Assembly (NCBI RefSeq): GCF_003019035.1
Contig: NZ_CP027447.1
DNA: 64,000 nucleotides
Direction: 5' to 3' (one strand)
From: Escherichia coli
Lineage (GTDB): Bacteria > Pseudomonadota > Gammaproteobacteria > Enterobacterales > Enterobacteriaceae
The notes beneath the pieces were generated by a model. The model did no database searches. It was given only the letters and a program-made list of their open reading frames with translations, and had not been told where the DNA came from. Positions within the stretch are counted from its first letter, which is position 1; each line of letters starts with the position of its first letter. Positions 22,957 to 43,637 of this stretch are shown here, piece after piece. The translations under genes and the position numbers were made by a program.

Positions 22957-23032
22957 GCCCGGATAGCTCAGTCGGTAGAGCAGGGGATTGAAAATCCCCG
23001 TGTCCTTGGTTCGATTCCGAGTCCGGGCACCA
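22957..23032 (+). tRNA. pheV: tRNA-Phe (GAA)
   Basis: Exact cloverleaf sequence gcccggatagctcagtcggtagagcaggggattgaaaatccccgtgtccttggttcgattccgagtccgggcacca. Confidence 0.9.
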
Positions 23033-32330: not shown

Positions 32331-33092
32331 TTATTTAAAATTCTGATTGTATCTATCAATAAGTATCTCATCATTACATAAATACGTATCAACAAATGAT
32401 TCTATACGAGAAACTGAAATACGCTCAGATGTATCATTAGAACCGTGATTCATAATATAGCAAACAACTGGAGTCTTCATAGCTAATACACTTCTTCCGA
32501 ATGCCAATGAAGATTCTGGATATTTTGTATGGTCTTTTAGTGAAAATAGAAATGTCCCTTTCTCTTCCTGATTTGAACAATCCTTGGCATCTAACTTAGA
32601 TATAAAACAACTACCACAATTTTTATAGAATATCTTTGTAACTCCATCAAGGTAAGCGATCTTCTCCCTGCGGGCATCAAACACATAACCTGTATAAAAT
32701 GCCAGATCATCAGCATCAGGATTTCGGGAAAACATATATTCTACTTGATAAGTGAAATCTTTGGATACCAGATCATCTGCATCAATAAACATGAAATAGT
32801 CACCAACTTTTGCAGTTTCGAGTATTTTTCGACGCGCGACATTTTTTTTTGATGCTTTGTCTGCCATGTAACCATTTTTATCTTCCGGGACGGGATGCCA
32901 GACTTTGATAAACTCAGTCCGTGGATTCTGATATCCACTTATAAACTCAGGAATGTCATGACATGCAACGACAATGCGATAGTCGCCACCCGCCCCCTCA
33001 ATTGACTTGATTGTAGCTTCCAGTCGAACGCAAACTTCATTCCAATCGTTAGAAGTCTGTTTTGCCCTGAGTGGGATTGCATAATGAAACAT
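32331..33092 (-). CDS. Putative glycosyltransferase or capsule-modifying enzyme (DxD motif, FIDADD)
   Basis: 253-aa ORF, AT-rich, between kpsS and kpsT; DADD motif suggests nucleotide-sugar transferase; function inferred only. Confidence 0.45.
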   Translation of the reverse strand: MFHYAIPLRAKQTSNDWNEVCVRLEATIKSIEGAGGDYRIVVACHDIPEFISGYQNPRTEFIKVWHPVPEDKNGYMADKASKKNVARRKILETAKVGDYFMFIDADDLVSKDFTYQVEYMFSRNPDADDLAFYTGYVFDARREKIAYLDGVTKIFYKNCGSCFISKLDAKDCSNQEEKGTFLFSLKDHTKYPESSLAFGRSVLAMKTPVVCYIMNHGSNDTSERISVSRIESFVDTYLCNDEILIDRYNQNFK

Positions 33093-33171
33093 TTTTATTC
33101 CTTATATACGTTAAATTAATAATATTATAATAAAGAGAACTACCTAATGTAAATAATATAAAATATTACAG

Positions 33172-33837
33172 CTAGGTAATATTCTCTTCTTCAGTGTATT
33201 TTTTTATGGCCTGTTCAACATCGTCATAATAATGAATAGCATTATCTCTACCCAAAAAAAGCGCAACATCACAGTATTCTTTTAATGAGTTAAGGCTGTG
33301 CGAAACCATAACAAAATTAGATTCAGAACGCCTAGCTTTAAATATTTTTGCACATTTCTCTCTAAATCGAGCATCACCAACCGCGGTAATTTCATCGACC
33401 AAATAGTAATCAAATTTGAACGCCATGCTTAATCCAAATCCTAGACGAGATCGCATCCCTGATGAATAAGACTTGATCGGCATATCAAAATATGTACCTA
33501 ATTCCGAAAATTCTTCTACAAAATTAATTTTTTCTTTAAGATCTTTTTTATCTGCATATAAACGCGCTACAAACTTTACATTTTCCCTTCCAGTCAGACT
33601 TCCTTGAAAACCACCAGAAATTCCAACAGGCCAAGAAATAGTTTTGTTTGTATAAACGGCCCCCTTGTCTGGTCTATCTATACCACCTATTATACGAAGA
33701 AGAGTGGATTTACCTGCTCCATTACGTCCAAGTAGCGCAATACTTTTACCACTTGGTAATTCAACATTTAAATCTTTAAATACATAATGTCGTCCTTGTG
33801 GTGTGAGATATGATTTAGTTAAGTTTTTAATTATGAT
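33172..33837 (-). CDS. kpsT: Capsule ABC exporter ATP-binding protein
   Basis: ORF 33172..33897; Walker A GRNGAGKST, ABC signature YSSGMRSRL, Walker B YYLVDE; likely start at MIIIKNLTKSY. Confidence 0.8.
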   Translation of the reverse strand: MIIKNLTKSYLTPQGRHYVFKDLNVELPSGKSIALLGRNGAGKSTLLRIIGGIDRPDKGAVYTNKTISWPVGISGGFQGSLTGRENVKFVARLYADKKDLKEKINFVEEFSELGTYFDMPIKSYSSGMRSRLGFGLSMAFKFDYYLVDEITAVGDARFREKCAKIFKARRSESNFVMVSHSLNSLKEYCDVALFLGRDNAIHYYDDVEQAIKKYTEEENIT

Positions 33838-34035
33838 CATAAAGTTAATAACACCTTGTGTATTGCTATACAATATAGGAACTCCGCATCTACCCAAGCA
33901 GTGATAAAAATAGGCCCATTATAAATGTTTTATAAATTTTAATTATAGGGAAACACATTAGAATGGGCCATGTAAATTATCGATACATCATCATAATTAA
34001 CAGTTTGGGCGTCATGACTCCCTTTAATTATACAA

Positions 34036-36798
34036 CTATATAAAAGCAATTTCTTTACTAAATCCTTTTTTAATAATTTTACAATTTTTCAAGTAATCAT
34101 CGTCTTCGATCCTCCATGTATGAGAATTCGTATTTCCATAACGCATTTGAATAAAGTTATATTTATCTGATGAGTAAATAATGAAGCCATTTTTCTTGCA
34201 TTCTTTGAGGAAATTAGTGTCTTCACCACGGTTTATGCATTCAAACTTAATTTTTTCAAAAACCTCTTTTCTAATTACTAAACTTCCTCCTGAAATGAAA
34301 TCAGAATAACGATTATCTTTTCCTGGTTGCTTAACTGCCATGATGTCTTTAGATTCTACATAGCAAAAATAAGAATCTTTGCCTACAATGTCGGCACCAC
34401 TAAATTTAAAAGCTTGCAAAGCGTCTAATAAATAGTTATCACCATAAAAATCATCATCATCCATCTTGGCAAGATAATCTCCTGAGGCATGAGTAACACC
34501 ATAATTAAGACACTCACCAAGAGTTATATCCTGTGGTAACTGATATACTTTAACATTAGGCATTCCATTTATCTTGTTTTTAACCACATTTATATCAAAA
34601 CTATCATTATTTAATATAAGTAATAACTCTTTATTCACGTGAGATTGTCGATGATAATTATCAAGCATCATATCAATATTATTGGGACGATTAGTACACA
34701 TAATTATTGATACTTTATCATCTTGAATGACCTTATTTTTAACTCCTATAGTCTTTAGAATCTGCTCAAAACGTTGTTGATACGAATGATACCGAATACA
34801 ATGACGAGCGGCCAAATGTCCTAAACGTTCACGTTCAATATCAGACTCAAGCAACCGTTGAACAATAGTTTTCGCTTCGAGTTTGTCTTTAACAATATGT
34901 ACATGTTCACCAAGCATAGCTTTCATACCATCAGAATGAGTTGATACAACTGGTGTACCGCAAGCCAAAATTTCGAAAACCCGACGGGAGAACATAGTTG
35001 GTGAGTCCTGAACAGTGTTGATATTCAGGAATAGCTTGTATTGTCTATAAGCAGTGAGCATCTGTTCATAGTCAAGTGAACCAACTATAAATGGTTGGTA
35101 TTTTTCAGGAAAGATTCGTGATTCTCTATGTTTGGTTGCATGCAGCATTCGGTCGTATATATGCAATTCACGATGTGCTGTTCCATCAAGGACAATTTCT
35201 GTTTGTGCTCGACGAGTATCATGTCCATTATTATACCAACTACCGGCAAAACATACTTCGTAAACTGGAAGTTTTTTATTCTTATCACGAATTGGGTTGT
35301 GGATAGCTGGTTGTGCCGCAAAAGGAAGTGCGTATACTCTATTATGTCCAACACGAGACTTGTATTTTTCTAAGATATTCCCATCAGTTGTGAATATATA
35401 GTCACAATCAGCTGCAACATCAATAAAGACTTCGTAGTTGGTTGGATCCTCCTTATTCCAAAATACTACAGGAATATTCTTGGATTGACAGTATTTGATA
35501 ACTTTGCGAAGTGGATCACCCAAATGTTTTTTATAACTCACCATGGTATATGTCCACTCACCATTATTACCATTCCAAGCTGATTCAAGAAATAACATTA
35601 CTGGGTGTGATTCGTCGATCTCTGATTTCCAATTTTGCTTGGTTAACGGAATAAAGTTTGCCTCATAGCGAAAGCATTCATAAGTAAACTTATCACAGAT
35701 CGTTACAACATTGATATGCTGATTTCGCAAGTGTGCATGTGATTCAAAGACAGGCCAACTAATCTCATTATCATGTTTTACCTCATTATAAACACCAACA
35801 CTTTCAAGCAATTGCTTCTTGACACGACAGTTAAGAGGGGGGTGATCAAATTTGCCTTTACGCTTAGCCGCACGAATCTTTATTAGCTTTTGAGGCAAGG
35901 AAAGAAAACCTTTCAGGCTGCTACGTTTAGTCTCTACCATAGTTTTGCCTAAACGATAGTATAAAGACCTTTCTAGTTTCTGCTTCTCGTAGAGAGCTGT
36001 AGCAAGCTTGTCTTTAAGCTCGTCAATTTTTTGCTTTTGTATTTGTGGTGATTCTGGTAATGAGAGAATTCGCGTCTCGAAAGCTTTTGTCAGCGTTTTT
36101 GCTTTCACTTCAAAGTGTCGTATAATTTCCTCATGGCTTTGGCAATTATCAAGCCTTATTGCATTCACGGGTAAAGTTTCTTCAATGTAGAGTTTAATAG
36201 GTTCAATACGAAGTGAACCTTGCCCTTTAAAACGTAATGCCATACTAAAGTAACGCGCATCAGGCATTGTATCGAATTCAATATGATTAATACCGTTATA
36301 AATAAGTTGATATTTGTGAGTAATTCTTTTATTTTCATCATACTGGATAATAAAAATTGCACATTCAGGTCGATTCTCTCCATATGATGTATTTAATACT
36401 AATCGATACTTGAATCCACCATTGATACGCCAGGAGTTTTTGTCCAATGGCAACCCATTAATATTCATACTGCCAGTTTGTAAATAAAAAGAGTCTCCAT
36501 TTATCAAATCCATTTCTACAAACAAACTTCCATCTGACTCTATATGCAAATGCTTATTACGACTATTATCAGCAGGTAATAACCATTCGGTCGATGATTC
36601 TATATTAGAAAGACCATTGAAAGGTAAAAACGGATAGTTTTGCTCTTTCCATTCTATTTTATTGGCCTTACGTGATAATAGACGAAAAAGTTTTTCGAAA
36701 TGACTATCATAGATTGAAAATGCCACCTGAAGTTGGTTAATTTCATCCCCAGTGTGTAATTTATTTTTTACTTTTTTCTTAGTAAGACGATTTGACAT
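34036..36798 (-). CDS. Large three-domain putative capsule polymerase: N-terminal unknown domain, central CgeB-like (GT1-fold) domain, C-terminal GT2 domain
   Basis: 920-aa ORF; central region paralogous to the 329-aa ORF at 39371..40360 (shared ...VFWNKEDP...FAAQP...SRRVFE...G.P... pattern); C-terminus has GT2 hallmarks (VSIIMCTNRP, DDDDF). Confidence 0.6.
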   Translation of the reverse strand: MSNRLTKKKVKNKLHTGDEINQLQVAFSIYDSHFEKLFRLLSRKANKIEWKEQNYPFLPFNGLSNIESSTEWLLPADNSRNKHLHIESDGSLFVEMDLINGDSFYLQTGSMNINGLPLDKNSWRINGGFKYRLVLNTSYGENRPECAIFIIQYDENKRITHKYQLIYNGINHIEFDTMPDARYFSMALRFKGQGSLRIEPIKLYIEETLPVNAIRLDNCQSHEEIIRHFEVKAKTLTKAFETRILSLPESPQIQKQKIDELKDKLATALYEKQKLERSLYYRLGKTMVETKRSSLKGFLSLPQKLIKIRAAKRKGKFDHPPLNCRVKKQLLESVGVYNEVKHDNEISWPVFESHAHLRNQHINVVTICDKFTYECFRYEANFIPLTKQNWKSEIDESHPVMLFLESAWNGNNGEWTYTMVSYKKHLGDPLRKVIKYCQSKNIPVVFWNKEDPTNYEVFIDVAADCDYIFTTDGNILEKYKSRVGHNRVYALPFAAQPAIHNPIRDKNKKLPVYEVCFAGSWYNNGHDTRRAQTEIVLDGTAHRELHIYDRMLHATKHRESRIFPEKYQPFIVGSLDYEQMLTAYRQYKLFLNINTVQDSPTMFSRRVFEILACGTPVVSTHSDGMKAMLGEHVHIVKDKLEAKTIVQRLLESDIERERLGHLAARHCIRYHSYQQRFEQILKTIGVKNKVIQDDKVSIIMCTNRPNNIDMMLDNYHRQSHVNKELLLILNNDSFDINVVKNKINGMPNVKVYQLPQDITLGECLNYGVTHASGDYLAKMDDDDFYGDNYLLDALQAFKFSGADIVGKDSYFCYVESKDIMAVKQPGKDNRYSDFISGGSLVIRKEVFEKIKFECINRGEDTNFLKECKKNGFIIYSSDKYNFIQMRYGNTNSHTWRIEDDDYLKNCKIIKKGFSKEIAFI

Positions 36799-36849
36799 AT
36801 CTATATTCTTTCAATTAAAAAAGTGTTTTCCAGACCAAAATAATATATA

Positions 36850-38103
36850 TTAATTGGCAGCATTTACAAAATCTAGTATTGTAGCGGTTGTATACTTTTT
36901 ATTAATAAGACCTTTAAATTCTTTATGCTTAACTAAAACTAGAACAATATCTGCTTGTTCCAGTGCCTCAGAGAGAGAAACCAATTTAACGTTATTACGT
37001 CCTTTTAAAGCTGATGGCAAATCATCAATATTAGGTTCAACTACTAAAAGCCGATTAGCAGGGTTATCTGCTAATCTTTTGGTAATTTCTAATGCAGGGC
37101 TTTCTCGTAGGTCATCAATATCCGGTTTAAATGCCAATCCCAAACAAGCGATCTTTGGGTTTCTTAGGCCGACAACAACTTGGCTAATTTTTTCAATCAC
37201 ATATTGAGGTTTATAATCGTTGACTAAGCGGGCCTGGTGAATTAACTTTGCAAGTTCTGGATTTTGGTTAACTATAAACCAAGGGTCAACTGCTATGCAA
37301 TGACCGCCAACACCACAGCCAGGCTGAAGAATATTAACTCGCGGATGCCGATTAGCCAATGAAATTAACTCCCATACATTTATACCTTGTTTATCGCAGA
37401 TTAGTGACAGTTCATTTGCAAAAGCAATGTTCACATCCCGAAAAGCATTTTCCGTTAACTTACTCATCTCAGCGGTACGCGCATTAGTGGCAATACATTC
37501 ACCTTTTTTAACGAAAAGTTTGTATAATTCAATTGCTGAAGTTGTACTGTGCTCATCCAGTCCCCCAATGATCCGGTCATTTTCAACTAATTCACGTATA
37601 ACTTGTCCTGGTAACACTCGCTCGGGGCAATGCGCAATGCAAATATCAGCCTTCAATCCATTTTTCATCTGATGAGGAAATGTTAAATCTGGACGCTCTT
37701 CTGCTAACCATTTAGCCATTTGCTCAGTAGCACCAACAGGCGAAGTGGACTCTAAAACAACCAGATTACCCTTTTCAAGTAGTGGCGCTAATGCACGTGA
37801 AGCTGATTCAATATATTTTAAATCAGCCTCAAAGTTCTTTCCTTTAAACGGTGTCGGTACAGCCATGAGGAATGCATCAGCTTTTTGCGGTTCTGTAAAG
37901 GCTTTCAAATATCCTTGGCTAACAGCAGACTTCACTAACTCCTGCAGTCCTGGCTCAACAATATGAATATTCCCTTGATTAATTGTATCTACAGCGTACT
38001 TGTTGATATCTACACCAACAACGTGAATATTGTTGCTAGCAATCACTGCTGCAGTAGGTAAACCAATATACCCTAAACCAATAACAGAAATACGTTTAAA
38101 CAT
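36850..38103 (-). CDS. UDP-N-acetyl-D-mannosamine dehydrogenase (WecC/Cap5O-like)
   Basis: 417-aa ORF with N-terminal Rossmann motif GLGYIGLPTA and UDP-sugar dehydrogenase catalytic Cys region. Confidence 0.75.
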   Translation of the reverse strand: MFKRISVIGLGYIGLPTAAVIASNNIHVVGVDINKYAVDTINQGNIHIVEPGLQELVKSAVSQGYLKAFTEPQKADAFLMAVPTPFKGKNFEADLKYIESASRALAPLLEKGNLVVLESTSPVGATEQMAKWLAEERPDLTFPHQMKNGLKADICIAHCPERVLPGQVIRELVENDRIIGGLDEHSTTSAIELYKLFVKKGECIATNARTAEMSKLTENAFRDVNIAFANELSLICDKQGINVWELISLANRHPRVNILQPGCGVGGHCIAVDPWFIVNQNPELAKLIHQARLVNDYKPQYVIEKISQVVVGLRNPKIACLGLAFKPDIDDLRESPALEITKRLADNPANRLLVVEPNIDDLPSALKGRNNVKLVSLSEALEQADIVLVLVKHKEFKGLINKKYTTATILDFVNAAN

Positions 38104-38185
38104 AATATTGAATCACTCTCTTGGACTAATTTTAATTAACATTAGTATAGATAAAAAAAGCTGTAATAATTTGCTGTTAGTTTAT

Positions 38186-39331
38186 TTATTCCAGTTGATA
38201 TCTAAAACCTAAAACAGCATCTACAATTCGCTGACTTGTTTTGCCATCACCATAAGGATTATTTGCATGACTCATTGACTGATATGTGACATCATCATCT
38301 AATAGACGAATAGTTTCACTCACGATTTCCTTATCACAAGTGCCTACTAAACGCACTGTTCCTGCTTTAACCGCAGCAGGCCGTTCAGTTGTATCACGCA
38401 TACATAGAACTGGCTTTCCTAATGACGGAGCTTCTTCTTGAATCCCGCCAGAATCTGTTAATATCAGATAACATTGCTTCATTAGATATACAAATGGTAA
38501 ATAATCCTGAGGTTCAATTAGATAAATATTTTCTAATTTTTGCAAATTTCTTTTCACTGGTTGTTGCACATTTGGATTCAAATGTACTGGGTAAATGATT
38601 TGAACGTCATCTCGTTGAGACAATTTAGCTAAAGCATTGCAAATTCGTTCAATTCCTTCTCCATGATTTTCTCTGCGGTGTAAGGTGACAAGGATCATTT
38701 TTTTATTTTTATCGATAAAATCAAATTGAGACTCCAACTGTTTTCTTAATATGGAGTTTTGTTCAATTTTGTTTGATACAGACACCAAAGCATCAATAAC
38801 TGAATTCCCTGTTAAAAAAATATTTTCTGGTGGAATATTTTCCATTATAAGATTTTTCAATGCACCAGCAGTCGGAGCATAGTGTTGGTCAGCAATTCCT
38901 CCCGTTAGTCGACGCATACCTTCTTCAGGCCATGGAGAATAAATATTTCCTGTGCGTAGACCGGCTTCAACATGGCCTACAGCAATATGATGATAATAAG
39001 CAGCTAATGTTGCTGCGAATGAAGTTGCTGTATCTCCATGGACAAGGATACGATTTGGTGTAAATTTAGAAAATACCGTTTTTAACCCTTGTAAGATAGC
39101 TGTTGTTACATCGGTTAAATCTTGACCAGGCCTCATAATATTGAGATCATAGTCAGGCTTAATCTCAAATAATTTTAACACTTGATCCAACATCTCACGA
39201 TGCTGTCCAGTTACACATACTCGCGCGTCTATTAGATTATTATTTTCAAATGCCTTAACAATAGGGGCCATTTTTATAGCCTCTGGTCTAGTACCAAATA
39301 TTATAAGTATTTTTTGCTGTATCATTTTCAT
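38186..39331 (-). CDS. UDP-N-acetylglucosamine 2-epimerase, non-hydrolysing (WecB-like)
   Basis: 381-aa [28 protein letters not shown]...; strong family resemblance. Confidence 0.8.
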
Positions 39332-39370
39332 CCTTCTTTAACATTAAAGAATAAACATTACATTTTTTAA

Positions 39371-40360
39371 CTAATAAAGTTCAAAATCCCGATTCATCTG
39401 CTGAAGGCGATGATGCCAGGTATGTTGAGATAATACAATTTCTTTTGCGCGTTCCCCCAAGACAGTTCTTTTATTTATGTCTTTTTGCAATTCCAAACAC
39501 CATTCTCGCGCGGATTGACCATTCGCAATTGAAATAATACTATCCTCAAATATACGATTCATAGCTATTGATGGACTGCTGATTATAGAACACCCTGAAG
39601 CACCTAATTCAAAAACCCTCCGTGAAAGCATTGTTGTAGATTTTCTAATTGTATTAAAATTTAGATAGATTTGATATTGAGTGTATGCCTGTGCAACTAA
39701 ATTTAAAGGAATTGATGGTCGACAATATACATGTAAATCATTTGGATAACTACAGTTATTTTTTTTATTCCAAAATCGATCATAAATAACCAACCCACAT
39801 CTTGAAAGTGAGTGTAGAACATCATATTGCATTTGGCTCCTTTCACTAAACTGATTACCATAGTAGCCACCAAAAAATGCAACACCATATTTCCGCTTTA
39901 CTTGAGGAACAGACTTATACCAATGAGGTTGCGCTGCAAACATCAGTACACCTACTGACTGGCACCTGTGGTCTAGTAATGAGTCATATCGATTAATTGA
40001 ATCCGCGTCTGTTGTATATATTATATCAAAAAAAGAAGCTGAATCAGAAAACCTTTCAAAATGGAATGGATCTTCTTTATTCCAAAATACAGTTTTTATT
40101 TTTTTTCTTTTGCAATATTCAACTATTTTCTTTAATTCATTGTTATTATCTGGTTTGTTTTCATAACTTGCTATTTTACCTTGCCAGCTATTCCTATATC
40201 CTCTCCAAGCAGATTCAACAAACAAAAAATCAGGTTTAAACAAGCGTAATTTCCAACGCCAATCAAAGGGAGTTAAAGGCAAAATATCTGCATCTGGAGC
40301 CAAACCATATGTCGTAAACTCATCTGCGATTAATGCAATACAAGGTTTTTTTTTCTTCAA
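39371..40360 (-). CDS. CgeB-like glycosyltransferase-fold protein
   Basis: 329-aa ORF paralogous to the central domain of the 920-aa protein; apparent TTG start followed by an A9 tract. Confidence 0.5.
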   Translation of the reverse strand: MKKKKPCIALIADEFTTYGLAPDADILPLTPFDWRWKLRLFKPDFLFVESAWRGYRNSWQGKIASYENKPDNNNELKKIVEYCKRKKIKTVFWNKEDPFHFERFSDSASFFDIIYTTDADSINRYDSLLDHRCQSVGVLMFAAQPHWYKSVPQVKRKYGVAFFGGYYGNQFSERSQMQYDVLHSLSRCGLVIYDRFWNKKNNCSYPNDLHVYCRPSIPLNLVAQAYTQYQIYLNFNTIRKSTTMLSRRVFELGASGCSIISSPSIAMNRIFEDSIISIANGQSAREWCLELQKDINKRTVLGERAKEIVLSQHTWHHRLQQMNRDFELY

Positions 40361-40729
40361 AATAATTCCCGCTGAATATTATTGAGTTCATACTAACAAA
40401 GAATCATTGATTGAATTTAAAGCATGTTATAAATACACTTTGACATGATTGCATCCAAAGCATCATAATTAAATAAATGTATTATTTTCCAACAAGGTCA
40501 TCTTATATAGATTATTATATATAAATGAGTGATATGGAATTATATTGGAACGAACAGAATGCGACTTAAAACATAACGCATTTGAGCATTAATAAAAATA
40601 TTACTTATTATAACATTAAAAAATACTTTCTTATGCCGTGCCATTATCTTTTAACTAGCACAGTTTTTATTATATTAATATTATTAATATAATAAAATCT
40701 AAACCGTTATTTATTTTATTCACAACAAC

Positions 40730-41728
40730 TTATATACCTAAAATATATTTAACCTTCCTGTACATTGTATCATAACGATCTACATGGCCAGGTTTATTAT
40801 CAAAGTATATGCTATAATCTCGAATATCATCCCCCCTATCAATACATCGTTGTATAAATGATAAAAGCAATGTTGTGTCGTAATGGCATTCATCACTAAT
40901 GGCGTTTTTATATTTATCTCTAAAAATACGATAATTCTCTTCTCTTGCACTATAATAACTATCATTGTGCTTTTTGTCATGATATAAATGAAGAGCTAAA
41001 TCTTTCTGAAGCAATATATCTAAACAATACTCTCCCAAATATTTTCTGAACCCAGTAGTAAATAACGGAGAATGACATGGTTTATCTATCAAAAAATCAG
41101 ATTTTAGTTTTGACAAAAAGTGATGGTTATATAAACGTATCAAAAAATCAAAATCTTCATACCCATGACCTTGAAAGCTTTCATCAAACCCATGTATTTT
41201 TTTATAGCTTTCTGACTTCAAAATTGTAATAGAGGAGGGACTTGCTAAATGTAAAAACTCTTTTCTTGAAAAATCAAAATATCTTTTTTTTAATAACTCT
41301 ACTGATATCTTTTTTTTAATTAATATGTGCGTCCCATATTTTGTCAAATATAAACACGGTAAAATATAGAATGGTTTTACTCCTTTTTGTATTTTATTTT
41401 TATATTTTTCGAATAAAACAACATCAGGATATATATCCACATCAAGCAATATGATAAATTCAGTATCAACTAATTTGAATGCAAAATTTCTTAGCAATGA
41501 AGTATTTATGTATTTATAACTACAATCGTATGAATTGACAATAACATGGTTATATTCACTCAAGGCTTCTATAAATACATGATCGTATTTAGTAAAGCGA
41601 TTTCCGTGACCAAATATAATTTTAAAATTATTTTCCCTAGTTGCTTCGGCAATACTAATTGCTTTCTGAATAATATCTTTAGGTCTGCGTTTTAGGTCTA
41701 TTGGGATTATAGCGGTTAACATTTTCAA
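40730..41728 (-). CDS. Putative GT2-family glycosyltransferase
   Basis: 332-aa ORF with AIIPI...LLDVDIYP and GYEDFDF motifs; extremely AT-rich. Confidence 0.45.
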   Translation of the reverse strand: MKMLTAIIPIDLKRRPKDIIQKAISIAEATRENNFKIIFGHGNRFTKYDHVFIEALSEYNHVIVNSYDCSYKYINTSLLRNFAFKLVDTEFIILLDVDIYPDVVLFEKYKNKIQKGVKPFYILPCLYLTKYGTHILIKKKISVELLKKRYFDFSRKEFLHLASPSSITILKSESYKKIHGFDESFQGHGYEDFDFLIRLYNHHFLSKLKSDFLIDKPCHSPLFTTGFRKYLGEYCLDILLQKDLALHLYHDKKHNDSYYSAREENYRIFRDKYKNAISDECHYDTTLLLSFIQRCIDRGDDIRDYSIYFDNKPGHVDRYDTMYRKVKYILGI

Positions 41729-41822
41729 ACTATTTGTAAGCCATAACAGATGTATGTTACAAAATCCATAGTATTTTCAATTGTGGCATTTCCTTTTTTA
41801 TTAAATTGCAAAGCCACACTAA

Positions 41823-42599
41823 TCATGATGTCAGCATTGCCTCTTCACGCGTTCGGTATAACGCCAGACCGATGAACAGGGTGACCAGAGTGAACATTGC
41901 AAGGTAGTTTAGACTCACGCCTTCGCTGATATAGCCAGGCATAACTGCCTCGCGGCTTAACTCTACGACATGCACTAATGGATTCCAGAGTAGATATGAC
42001 CAGTATTGCTTCGGAATCGAGTGTAGAGGGAACATGATGCAGGAGATGAAATACAGCGGCTTAAGCAGTATCGGCAGGACCTTTTGCATTTCAGGGAAAG
42101 TCTTACCAACGACCATGAATATTAAGCCAACGCCACATGAAAGAATGATTAACAAACTCCAGGTAAGCACAAGTTGTAAAAAGTTTGTTATTTCGAAATA
42201 TTCGCCTGCCATCCAGACAATAAGCATAAGCAATATATAAACAGCAACATAAATCAGTGTCTCAAGCAATGCACGCGCAATGATCGTATCGATGGGTTTT
42301 ACTGGTCGATAATTAAACAGCCCCTGATTCGCTTCAATAGCACCTACAGAACGATTGCTGATACTGCTAAAGATAAAAAAGGGAATCAGGCCATTAAGTA
42401 AAAACACCGGGAATGAGATGTCTGGCATCGTGCGGTGCATAATGTAACCAAAAATGCCCAACAGTATCAGCAAATGCGCAGAGGGTTCGAGAATCGCCCA
42501 CAGATATCCCAGACGGAACTTACCAAAGCGTGTTCGTATTTCTCGTAGAAATAATGCCTCTACGGTGACTTTCTGGACTTCAAATCCACTTCTTGCCAT
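41823..42599 (-). CDS. kpsM: Capsule ABC exporter permease
   Basis: ORF 41823..42659; start MARSGFEVQKVTVEALFLREIRTRFGK; ABC-2 permease. Confidence 0.85.
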   Translation of the reverse strand: MARSGFEVQKVTVEALFLREIRTRFGKFRLGYLWAILEPSAHLLILLGIFGYIMHRTMPDISFPVFLLNGLIPFFIFSSISNRSVGAIEANQGLFNYRPVKPIDTIIARALLETLIYVAVYILLMLIVWMAGEYFEITNFLQLVLTWSLLIILSCGVGLIFMVVGKTFPEMQKVLPILLKPLYFISCIMFPLHSIPKQYWSYLLWNPLVHVVELSREAVMPGYISEGVSLNYLAMFTLVTLFIGLALYRTREEAMLTS

Positions 42600-42630
42600 T
42601 TGATGATGTGATCCTAATCTCTTCAGGTAC

Positions 42631-42642
42631 GCTACCGCCCTT
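42631..42642 (-). promoter_or_regulatory. ops (operon polarity suppressor) / JUMPstart element for RfaH-dependent antitermination
   Basis: Minus-strand sequence GGCGGTAGCGTA about 30 nt upstream of the kpsM start; matches the ops core GGCGGTAG known upstream of kpsM. Confidence 0.6.
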
Positions 42643-43637
42643 GGCTTAACAGCTACCAATACACTGGAGGTAATGCTTATTTGTAACTGGATAAAATTTA
42701 CTCAGACGGTTTGACCTTTTTAATAGCCGCAAAAAATTTCAGCAGAAATTATTTCCGCAGGGATAAATAGATCTATTTCCGTCTCGTTTCTTCTAATCCA
42801 TTCTTCAGGCATGAATGTATTCGGTCTTCTGGTAATTTCAGAAAACTGGCCGTTTTAGAATGTAGAGTTAATTTCTCAGGAAATTATTTTTTGTTCTTAC
42901 TGTTAACTACTTGATTATAATACCCCATATGGATTTTATGCGTAACAATACCTGCAATCTGTTTCAAACCAGAACGCATGCGATTGATTACCAATAAATT
43001 GTTTAGCGAGAAACTATTTCCCTATTTAAAATTCACTCATGTACTTCTTATTTATATCTACAGCACCCTCTTTACAGTCACATTTGTGATTTACATCACA
43101 TTTAAACGGTGTTATTTAAGCCCCATTAATAATTCCGTGAGTAATTATTTTCGTCAATTAAAATATACATCTTGATTATTTTGTGCGTTTATTTTAACCA
43201 GCGTTACAGCCAGCATTATCCCTCAGTAGATATACCTGAGCAGACATTTCTTAAAATCGACGAATAGTTTCCCTGGAAATTATTATGCTTATTTGAAATT
43301 CCCTTTCTGATTATCTCCAGTAATTTTACTAATTTCCAGGCTACACAAAATACAGATCACATAAGAATTATCCTATATGTTTTGACCTATCAATTGTTAC
43401 TCAATGATTTATTACAACTATTAATAATCATAATGTGTCAAAACACTTAAGCATCTTTACAGTCTTAGAAAGGTGTCGATTAACGAAGGCTACATGGTGA
43501 AAAACAGGTTCCTTCAGTGTTACCGAATATTCCGTGGTGGTCTGGAGGGAGATAATTCTTGCTACATCGAAACTCAGCCCGGTGAGCGGGTTTGACAGTT
43601 CCGCACTCACCATTGGGCTAAGGGTTATCAGGTGGGG

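Follow-up and report, generated by a model that had tools for sequence, protein, structure and literature searches.

A 920-residue protein with two glycosyltransferase domains as a candidate backbone polymerase of a K7-like group 2 capsule in Escherichia coli

The gene at positions 34036–36798 (minus strand, stop codon included, ATG start) of a 64,000-nucleotide stretch of Escherichia coli contig NZ_CP027447.1 (assembly GCF_003019035.1), hereafter called the window, encodes a 920-residue multidomain glycosyltransferase (GT), K106_9 of the kTYPr capsule catalogue. The protein is probably the bifunctional backbone polymerase of a K7-like group 2 capsule, type K106 of that catalogue, with both activities predicted: two potentially active GT domains lie in one chain, within a capsule locus that also holds the matching donor genes. 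The initial annotation had proposed a dual-activity polymerase for a disaccharide repeat, a reading that gains from the repeat of N-acetylmannosaminuronic acid (ManNAcA) and glucose (Glc) in the sister type K7 and from the adjacent wecB and wecC genes, and that falls short of proof, with three further transferase genes in the same locus. The identical protein is public on 136 contigs, named just "glycosyltransferase", and has 1575 homologues at E values of 1e-3 or lower; the open reading frame is therefore a real gene, and a chance frame is excluded. The gene occurs in 54 of 5426 complete E. coli genomes, with an identity of at least 99% in 5 and of 92% in 49. The surrounding island (32–43 kb of the window) has a G+C content of 30–36%, against about 52% for the neighboring chromosome.

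The two catalytic modules were delimited by Pfam searches and by an AlphaFold2 model, computed on an alignment of 58 sequences with homologues at 32–90% identity. Matches were obtained for DUF3880 (PF12996, residues 459–522, 3.5e-7), the CgeB-type family Glyco_trans_1_2 (PF13524, residues 571–681, 4.8e-21) and Glycos_transf_2 (PF00535, residues 698–825, 2.9e-11). The model had a mean predicted local distance difference test score (pLDDT) of 88.6 and a predicted template-modeling score of 0.67, and both GT folds were confident, with pLDDT values mostly above 90. The central CgeB-like domain (DUF3880 plus Glyco_trans_1_2; residues 345–690; 34729–35766, minus strand) presents the two Rossmann lobes of a GT-B fold, spanning residues 360–685 in the model, and the C-terminal GT2-type domain (residues 691–920; 34039–34728, minus strand) presents the Rossmann-like GT-A fold, spanning residues 695–920. 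A central CgeB-like transferase and a C-terminal GT2 domain with a DDDDF motif had both been claimed at the outset, and both were borne out, since domain-wise profile searches and structure prediction agreed on a transferase fold for each region; the motif itself occupies residues 780–784. In the alignment, D780–D783 (34450–34461, minus strand), followed by F784, form the DxD-type metal and nucleotide-sugar motif of the GT-A domain, in which K778, D780, D782, D783 and D860 are invariant and the ED-type motif E859–D860 is kept. The invariant residues of the GT-B domain include E405, K449, E450, D451, H500, R529, D549, R550, N592, N594, R605, R606 and E609, and among these R605, R606 and E609 lie on the usual nucleotide-sugar helix, with E405, E450, D451, H500 and D549 as candidate acidic or histidine catalytic residues. 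The EX7E motif of family GT4 is incomplete, with only its second glutamate (E609) present and T601 standing eight residues earlier within DSPTMFSRRVFE. This gap, together with an E value of 0.003 at best for Pfam Glycos_transf_1, places the protein outside CAZy family GT4, and no GT4 call by dbCAN or DIAMOND is listed for it in the available part of the catalogue (PMC13171606). From the invariant residues in both domains and the confident folds, both modules are predicted to be catalytically competent.

The window holds an E. coli group 2 capsule (kps) locus adjoining tRNA-Phe, with kpsFEDUCS on the plus strand and a minus-strand operon in the order kpsM, a GT2-like gene (332 residues), a CgeB-like gene (329 residues), wecB, wecC, the 920-residue gene, kpsT and a GT-A gene (253 residues). 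Directly upstream of the 920-residue gene lie the two genes of donor synthesis, wecC (UDP-ManNAc dehydrogenase; 36850–38103, minus strand; NF008286, 665 bits) and wecB (UDP-GlcNAc 2-epimerase; 38186–39331, minus strand; TIGR00236, 503 bits), both of which exceed their NCBIfam equivalog cut-offs. The kTYPr catalogue (Miravet-Verde et al. 2026, PMC13171606), in its available part, lists the sister types K7 and K106, whose 920-residue proteins K7_9 and K106_9 are 90.8% identical and whose genes _10 to _13 are 100% identical; these two proteins also share the Pfam and coil layout and the neighbors of the window gene. In the same source K106_7 is a 253-residue GT-A protein. This gene separates K106 from K7, it is present in the window (32331–33092, minus strand) and the window is therefore of type K106, with the full K106 gene set: the 253-residue GT-A between kpsS and kpsT, the 920-residue GT, wecC, wecB, the CgeB-like and GT2-like genes and group 2A kpsFEDUCS. 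From this comparison of gene content, the 920-residue gene is almost certainly the catalogued K106_9. The 253-residue GT-A gene was found solely in the 5 K106-type complete genomes, whereas the group with 92% identity (such as ATCC 8739, of K7 type) carries a DUF6270 gene in its place. A decision between K7 and K106 by the md5 column of the kTYPr InterProScan table was tried and abandoned, as no value matched the translations and the column is unreliable, its values recurring across different proteins. For K106_9 the available catalogue entry gives domain annotation only, "GT2" by dbCAN_sub and "GT0" by DIAMOND, and the K7 polymer is documented as a ManNAcA-Glc repeat both in a published legend and with reference to Tsui 1982.

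The link between the fused transferase and ManNAcA synthesis extends well beyond E. coli. The C-terminal 60% of the protein, hereafter the CgeB-GT2 didomain, is 40–49% identical to proteins of cyanobacteria, deltaproteobacteria, Oligoflexia and Bacillales, and many distant homologues carry N-terminal methyltransferase domains in place of the N-terminal beta-sandwich described below. The cassette of CgeB-like gene, wecB, wecC and 920-residue protein recurs in the kps loci of Aeromonas veronii (L003) and of a second E. coli type (L004). Near the didomain gene, Pseudobacteriovorax has a fused wecB-wecC together with kpsC, kpsS, kpsF and kdsA; Trichodesmium has an Epimerase_2 gene abutting it and a dehydrogenase nearby; Metabacillus has two sugar dehydrogenases and an ATP-binding cassette (ABC) transporter; and a metagenomic genome (L009) has an ABC transporter, two tandem methyltransferase-CgeB-GT2 genes, wecB and wecC. 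Over the eight loci compared (the window, these six and L008), wecB- and/or wecC-type genes occur in seven and ABC-transporter genes in six. Away from kps loci it is the didomain that recurs as the transferase, and the stand-alone CgeB-like and Glyco_tranf_2_2 genes are found in only three of the eight, the window, L003 and L004, each with kpsC and kpsS. According to the accessible part of PMC13171606, K7_13 and K116_9 are 61.6% identical and K116_9 and K52_13 are 63.1% identical; with the confinement of the stand-alone genes to kpsC/kpsS loci, this fits roles in linker priming.

The 920-residue gene is a mosaic with respect to its K7-type allele, from which residues 1–630 differ at 7 positions (about 99% identity) and residues 631–920 retain about 70% identity. 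At the DNA level, identity to the K7-type locus of ATCC 8739 (L002) is 99–100% from 43.0 kb down to position 34902 and 73–77% from there to the stop codon, which places a recombination breakpoint at 34890–34910 (minus strand, about residues 630–636), within the last helices of the GT-B domain and about 60 residues ahead of the GT-A domain. The exchanged segment (33172–34902, minus strand) runs from about residue 632 through kpsT, past which the gene content differs. An exchange of the GT-A domain and the genes behind it thus turned a K7-like locus into K106, or the other way round. Across 25 full-length homologues from Aeromonas, Leclercia and other E. coli, the GT-B core was the most conserved part of the protein, with 87.5% mean pairwise identity against about 60% for the N-terminus, and the GT-A domains fell into two classes, 71–76% or 46–52% identical to the query. 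The GT-A domain is thus the exchangeable module. Transfer of ManNAcA by the GT-B domain and of the hexose by the GT2 domain is weakly favored because the former is constant and the latter swapped, because neither GT-A class comes with additional sugar-nucleotide genes (L003, L004), and because a second CgeB-like gene lies directly beside wecB.

In the mechanism that we propose, the 920-residue enzyme would be soluble, membrane-peripheral and cytoplasmic. WecB and WecC would make UDP-ManNAcA, and the two GT domains would alternately add ManNAcA and a housekeeping hexose (Glc in K7) to a chain begun on the lipid linker of poly-3-deoxy-D-manno-oct-2-ulosonic acid (poly-Kdo) made by KpsS and KpsC; that linker would receive its first residues from the two stand-alone proteins, GT2-like and CgeB-like, in the role of transition transferases. 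The N-terminal sandwich may hold the nascent glycan or the acceptor, the helical stalk may serve for oligomerization or as a spacer, and docking of the enzyme on the anionic face of the inner membrane or on the poly-Kdo linker may fall to the basic tail and the basic helix. The finished chain would leave through KpsMT-KpsED, and the 253-residue GT-A would supply a K106-specific decoration.

Several observations weigh against a backbone polymerase. The three further transferase genes mean that the polymerizing pair is not uniquely identified, and polymerization could be the work of the single-domain CgeB-like and GT2-like proteins, as it is of KfiA and KfiC in K5. The closest structural neighbors of the GT-B domain are the retaining GT4/GT5-type enzymes PimA, BshA and GlgM, and this counts against the proposal because both K7 linkages are reportedly beta and would need inverting enzymes; fold neighbors do not, as a caveat, fix the mechanism. 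The incomplete EX7E motif may point to a different chemistry, though it proves nothing, and one of the eight didomain loci, L008, has no sugar-nucleotide genes nearby. The literature yielded no functional study, biochemical or genetic, of the 920-residue protein, of a K7 polymerase or of any CgeB-like transferase, and no ManNAcA transferase of ABC-dependent capsules was found there.

The first of these objections underlies an alternative that we regard as unlikely, though less so than the other two, namely that the protein is not a processive polymerase and acts either in priming or transition or as half of a polymerase made up of several proteins. Polymerization would then fall to the stand-alone CgeB-like and GT2-like proteins, and the N-terminal head would find the linker or chain end while the 920-residue protein added the first or special residues. 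The locus does contain a second complete set of GT-B and GT-A transferases. The stand-alone CgeB-like GT-B protein (329 residues; 39371–40360, minus strand; Pfam DUF3880/Glyco_trans_1_2; "CgeB family protein" in the NCBI Prokaryotic Genome Annotation Pipeline, PGAP) is a paralogue of residues 364–680 (32% identity, 8e-50) and keeps the motifs common to the fused domain (ESAW, FWNKEDP, FAAQP, YDR and SRRVFE). Its companion, the GT2-like transferase (332 residues; 40730–41728, minus strand), matches Glyco_tranf_2_2 and Glyco_transf_7C and, like K7_13, is 61.6% identical to K116_9. E. coli K5, with KfiA and KfiC, offers a precedent for a split polymerase. Transition transferases have been described for ABC-dependent capsules (PMC11666461). 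It is, however, the fused didomain and not the stand-alone genes that is kept with wecB and wecC across phyla, and the serotype-defining recombination strikes the GT-A domain of the fused gene. Proteins like K7_13 occur in K116 and K52 as well, and a linker role for them fits better if, as we assume, those polymers are unrelated to that of K7. As candidate relatives of the fused GT-A domain, the 332-residue and 253-residue transferases were both rejected, with no similarity to it detectable by BLASTP.

A second and quite improbable alternative treats one GT domain as catalytic and the other as a structural or regulatory pseudo-enzyme, which would make the protein monofunctional and dependent on a partner for the second linkage. 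Pseudo-transferase domains do occur in related two-domain polymerases, as in EXT2, whose GT47 half is inactive, and EXT1-EXT2 are the top Foldseek hits of the 920-residue protein; the first glutamate of the GT4 motif is also missing from its GT-B domain. Against this stand the dense invariant polar residues of both domains across the whole range of the 58 homologues, the GT-B core as the most conserved region (87.5%) with R605, R606 and E609 in its nucleotide-sugar helix, and the retention of DDDD and E859–D860 in the GT-A domain. Least probable of all, and very unlikely in our judgment, is a decorating enzyme that attaches branches or a chain-end cap to a backbone built by others, guided by its glycan-binding head much like the chain-terminating or modifying enzymes of ABC-transporter-dependent O-antigen pathways: fusions of the same sandwich to methyl-, sulfo- and pyruvyltransferases, methyltransferase domains at the N-terminal position of environmental homologues and a coiled-coil region recalling WbdD and WbbB speak for it, whereas K7 is said to be a plain linear disaccharide repeat with O-acetyl as its sole decoration, no more than four GT modules are available in the K7 locus for priming and two backbone linkages, and several distant loci have few or no other transferase genes near the didomain (L005 ends at a contig edge).

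Returning to the presumed polymerase, its N-terminal third has a layout of its own. The initial annotation described a domain of about 330 residues with no nameable motif, and this was upheld: residues 1–345, searched alone, gave no match in Pfam, PHROGs or NCBIfam, and a profile search of Protein Data Bank (PDB) sequences found no relative. The suggestion that this domain might be a carrier received no support. In the structural model, residues 1–49 (36652–36798, minus strand) form a disordered basic tail (net charge +6 in 16 residues) followed by an amphipathic helix (residues 17–45). Residues 50–206 (36181–36651, minus strand) form a beta-sandwich of jelly-roll type that resembles carbohydrate-binding modules (CBMs) and has no Pfam family, with W72, Y105, D154, Y167, N171, G192 and G194 invariant. 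Residues 207–340 (35779–36180, minus strand) form a helical or coiled-coil stalk with a conserved SLYYRLGK motif and helices at 222–245, 251–276, 279–292 and 295–313; a Coils prediction at 258–278 is given in the supplement of PMC13171606. The four stalk helices end in the conserved cationic segment LPQKLIKIRAAKRKGKF, and the conserved cationic helix LKGFLSLPQKLIKIRAAKRKGKF (residues 295–317; 35848–35916, minus strand; net charge +7 over residues 295–320) is a candidate contact to the membrane or to poly-Kdo. Transmembrane anchoring was rejected, the highest 19-residue Kyte-Doolittle mean of the protein being just 0.8.

The sandwich has the beta-sandwich/jelly-roll fold of CBMs and lacks sequence membership of any described CBM or Wzt_C family. 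Its fold neighbors include a xylan-binding CBM (4qpw: 11.9, 2.6 A), the hyaluronan-binding module of pneumococcal hyaluronate lyase (4d0q: 11.5, 3.1 A) and a CBM4 (1gui: 11.4, 2.9 A), with further matches to CBM16, CBM61, the CBM-like Asp2, Asp3 and Gap3, and phage tailspike accessory domains. A third catalytic domain at the N-terminus was discarded, as the region is a plain jelly roll whose structural neighbors are accessory domains rather than enzymes. When the N-terminal profile was run against 1.84 billion representative proteins, 122 matches were obtained, and beyond the immediate family it is the sandwich alone that matches, in an N-terminal, internal or C-terminal position of proteins of 400–1500 residues. 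A Pfam scan of 50 of the 122 matches found as partners GT4/GT1 transferases (18), CgeB-like transferases (11), sulfotransferases (10) and polysaccharide pyruvyltransferases (6), as well as FkbM and other methyltransferases, heparinase II/III-like domains and one ABC ATPase; the GT4 and FkbM fusions were confirmed on individual proteins. From the varied partners and positions, the sandwich is a mobile accessory module, mostly on enzymes that synthesize or modify polysaccharides and, in a few cases, beside domains that degrade glycans, and such a partner range would be expected of a glycan-binding module. It constitutes an unnamed domain family (P0128–P0238) with no Pfam entry, a candidate new family of cytoplasmic glycan-binding domains that may merit description. 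As a speculation that we hold with little confidence, head, stalk and cationic helix might together act as a built-in product sensor or chain-length device, and the sandwich family as a general cytoplasmic reader of nascent glycans. Located at the membrane or the poly-Kdo linker, the N-terminal unit would then bind the ManNAcA-hexose chain as it grows and control its length or the processivity of synthesis; it would be the first element of this kind in a kps (group 2) capsule pathway. The family at large would recruit polymerases and methyl-, sulfo- and pyruvyltransferases to chains ahead of ABC export, and would thereby parallel the Wzt CBM and the WbdD ruler in function while being homologous to neither.

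Comparable designs are known from other polymerases. KfoC (K4CP) of E. coli K4 and PmHS2 and PmHAS of Pasteurella likewise carry two GT domains per chain and build alternating polymers of a uronic acid and a second sugar in a capsule pathway of group 2 type, and the GT-A domain described here resembles theirs structurally, a likeness confined to the GT-A fold. They are, however, composed of two GT-A domains, whereas the 920-residue protein combines a CgeB-like GT-B with a GT-A domain and adds the CBM-like and helical module of 340 residues; with a single GT-A domain and without significant similarity to 2z86 or PmHS2 in a PDB sequence search, it stands outside the KfoC/K4CP-PmHAS family. The order GT-B then GT-A in one chain is that of the heparan sulfate polymerase EXT1/EXT2 (GT47 plus GT64), whose product also alternates a uronic acid and a hexosamine. 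The Foldseek hit to EXT1-EXT2 covers about 640 columns, with a TM score of about 0.27, reflecting different domain packing, and 10% identity. No Pfam Exostosin or Glyco_transf_64 match was found in the 920-residue protein, and only the fold order is common to it and the exostosins, which, unlike it, are type II membrane proteins of the eukaryotic Golgi lumen; the likeness is convergent or very distant.

WbbB (Klebsiella O12/Raoultella) and WbdD-WbdA also unite an accessory N-terminal domain, a coiled coil and polymerizing modules in an ABC-transporter pathway. A comparison with this ruler type found the predicted helices and coil (222–313 and 258–278) and, unlike in WbbB and WbdD, no terminating domain (kinase, methyltransferase or GT99); the pathway here is also the poly-Kdo-linked kps one. 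CgeB of Bacillus subtilis, involved in spore crust maturation, shares its Pfam families with the central domain and with the 329-residue neighbor, and is itself a stand-alone protein of spore-surface glycosylation. In Cps3D and Cps7D, with their tetratricopeptide repeat (TPR) domain, and in Bcs3, a non-catalytic accessory domain is required for contact with the linker or acceptor, and priming falls to transition transferases of their own (PMC11666461). These enzymes are TagF-like phosphotransferase polymerases with a TPR domain, whereas the protein described here has a beta-sandwich and a predicted purely glycosidic chemistry. The N-terminal unit has no known counterpart among characterized capsule polymerases, the nearest in concept being the Cps3D TPR domain and WbdD/WbbB.

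The gene sequence is already public and catalogued as K106_9; the mosaic breakpoint, the CBM-like module with its distribution and the cross-phylum linkage of the didomain to wecB and wecC are new, none of them being given in the available part of the kTYPr catalogue. No glycosyltransferase has so far been assigned to ManNAcA-containing polymers that depend on ABC transporters, E. coli K7 included. Other such ManNAcA polymers are those of Haemophilus influenzae types d and e, Mannheimia A1 and the Gram-positive teichuronic acids. If the CgeB-GT2 didomain is the synthase in question, it would show what chemistry the members of the large CgeB-like family perform, a family that CAZy leaves without a class ("GT0"), and open an enzymatic route to K7-type glycans for vaccine or phage-receptor work. 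The intragenic breakpoint near the junction of the two GT domains is a clean natural case of a new K type arising by exchange of a catalytic module and the genes that follow it. None of these findings on the 920-residue protein overturns current models.

Further features of the locus and its relatives were recorded. In contrast to a classical kpsMT pair, kpsM and kpsT are split by five serotype-specific genes, with a further transferase gene between kpsT and kpsS (32331–42659, minus strand). The kpsM-like permease gene (41823–42659, minus strand; PGAP start near 42598) encodes a protein that scores 189 bits, short of the 300 bits set by NCBIfam for KpsM, and the kpsT-like ATPase gene (33172–33897, minus strand; PGAP start near 33840) is 76% identical in nucleotides to the K7-type kpsT. 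An ops/JUMPStart core, GGCGGTAG, lies at 42632–42639 (minus strand), about 34 nucleotides upstream of the annotated kpsM start. As the window holds three copies of the octamer where about one is expected, its sequence alone is weak evidence and its position is the suggestive part; it suggests a possible RfaH-dependent read-through of the entire operon from kpsM through the 920-residue gene and kpsT to the GT-A gene. In E. coli SCU-301 (L001 12018–12020, corresponding to about 36780 of the window) a one-nucleotide deletion in codon 6 of the 920-residue gene (cttactaag to cttataag) leads PGAP to annotate an alternative upstream start; it could be a sequencing error or a mutation that inactivates the gene or alters the N-terminus. 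Phase variation is not supported, since the difference is the loss of a single C with no slippage in the nearby A run. In E. coli WP4-S18-ESBL-08 (NZ_AP022095.1; H20) the 253-residue GT-A gene matches at two separate places, from base 167 on, and is probably interrupted, to judge from these matches. For the DUF6270 protein specific to K7, PDB sequences offered no meaningful match; that it is the K7 O-acetyltransferase is a guess. A DUF6270 gene also lies near the CgeB-GT2 gene of Metabacillus (L006).

In Aeromonas veronii (L003, 12813–15321) an AA_permease_2-like gene and an ATP-grasp (TupA-like) gene follow directly after the 920-residue homologue; by analogy with the H. influenzae type d capsule, in which the uronic acid is amidated with an amino acid, they may serve such an amidation. 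In L009 (10001–15654) and at both ends of L006, two tandem or nearby methyltransferase-CgeB-GT2 genes come immediately after an ABC transporter whose ATPase has a C-terminal leucine-rich repeat extension, an arrangement that looks like an O-antigen-style terminator and polymerase. On the window itself, tRNA-Phe (22957–23032, plus strand) is followed by an IS110 transposase remnant (about 23.1–24.1 kb) and then kpsF, the usual pheV-linked kps insertion site, and beyond the far side of the locus lies a gsp type II secretion operon (43.6–53.1 kb).

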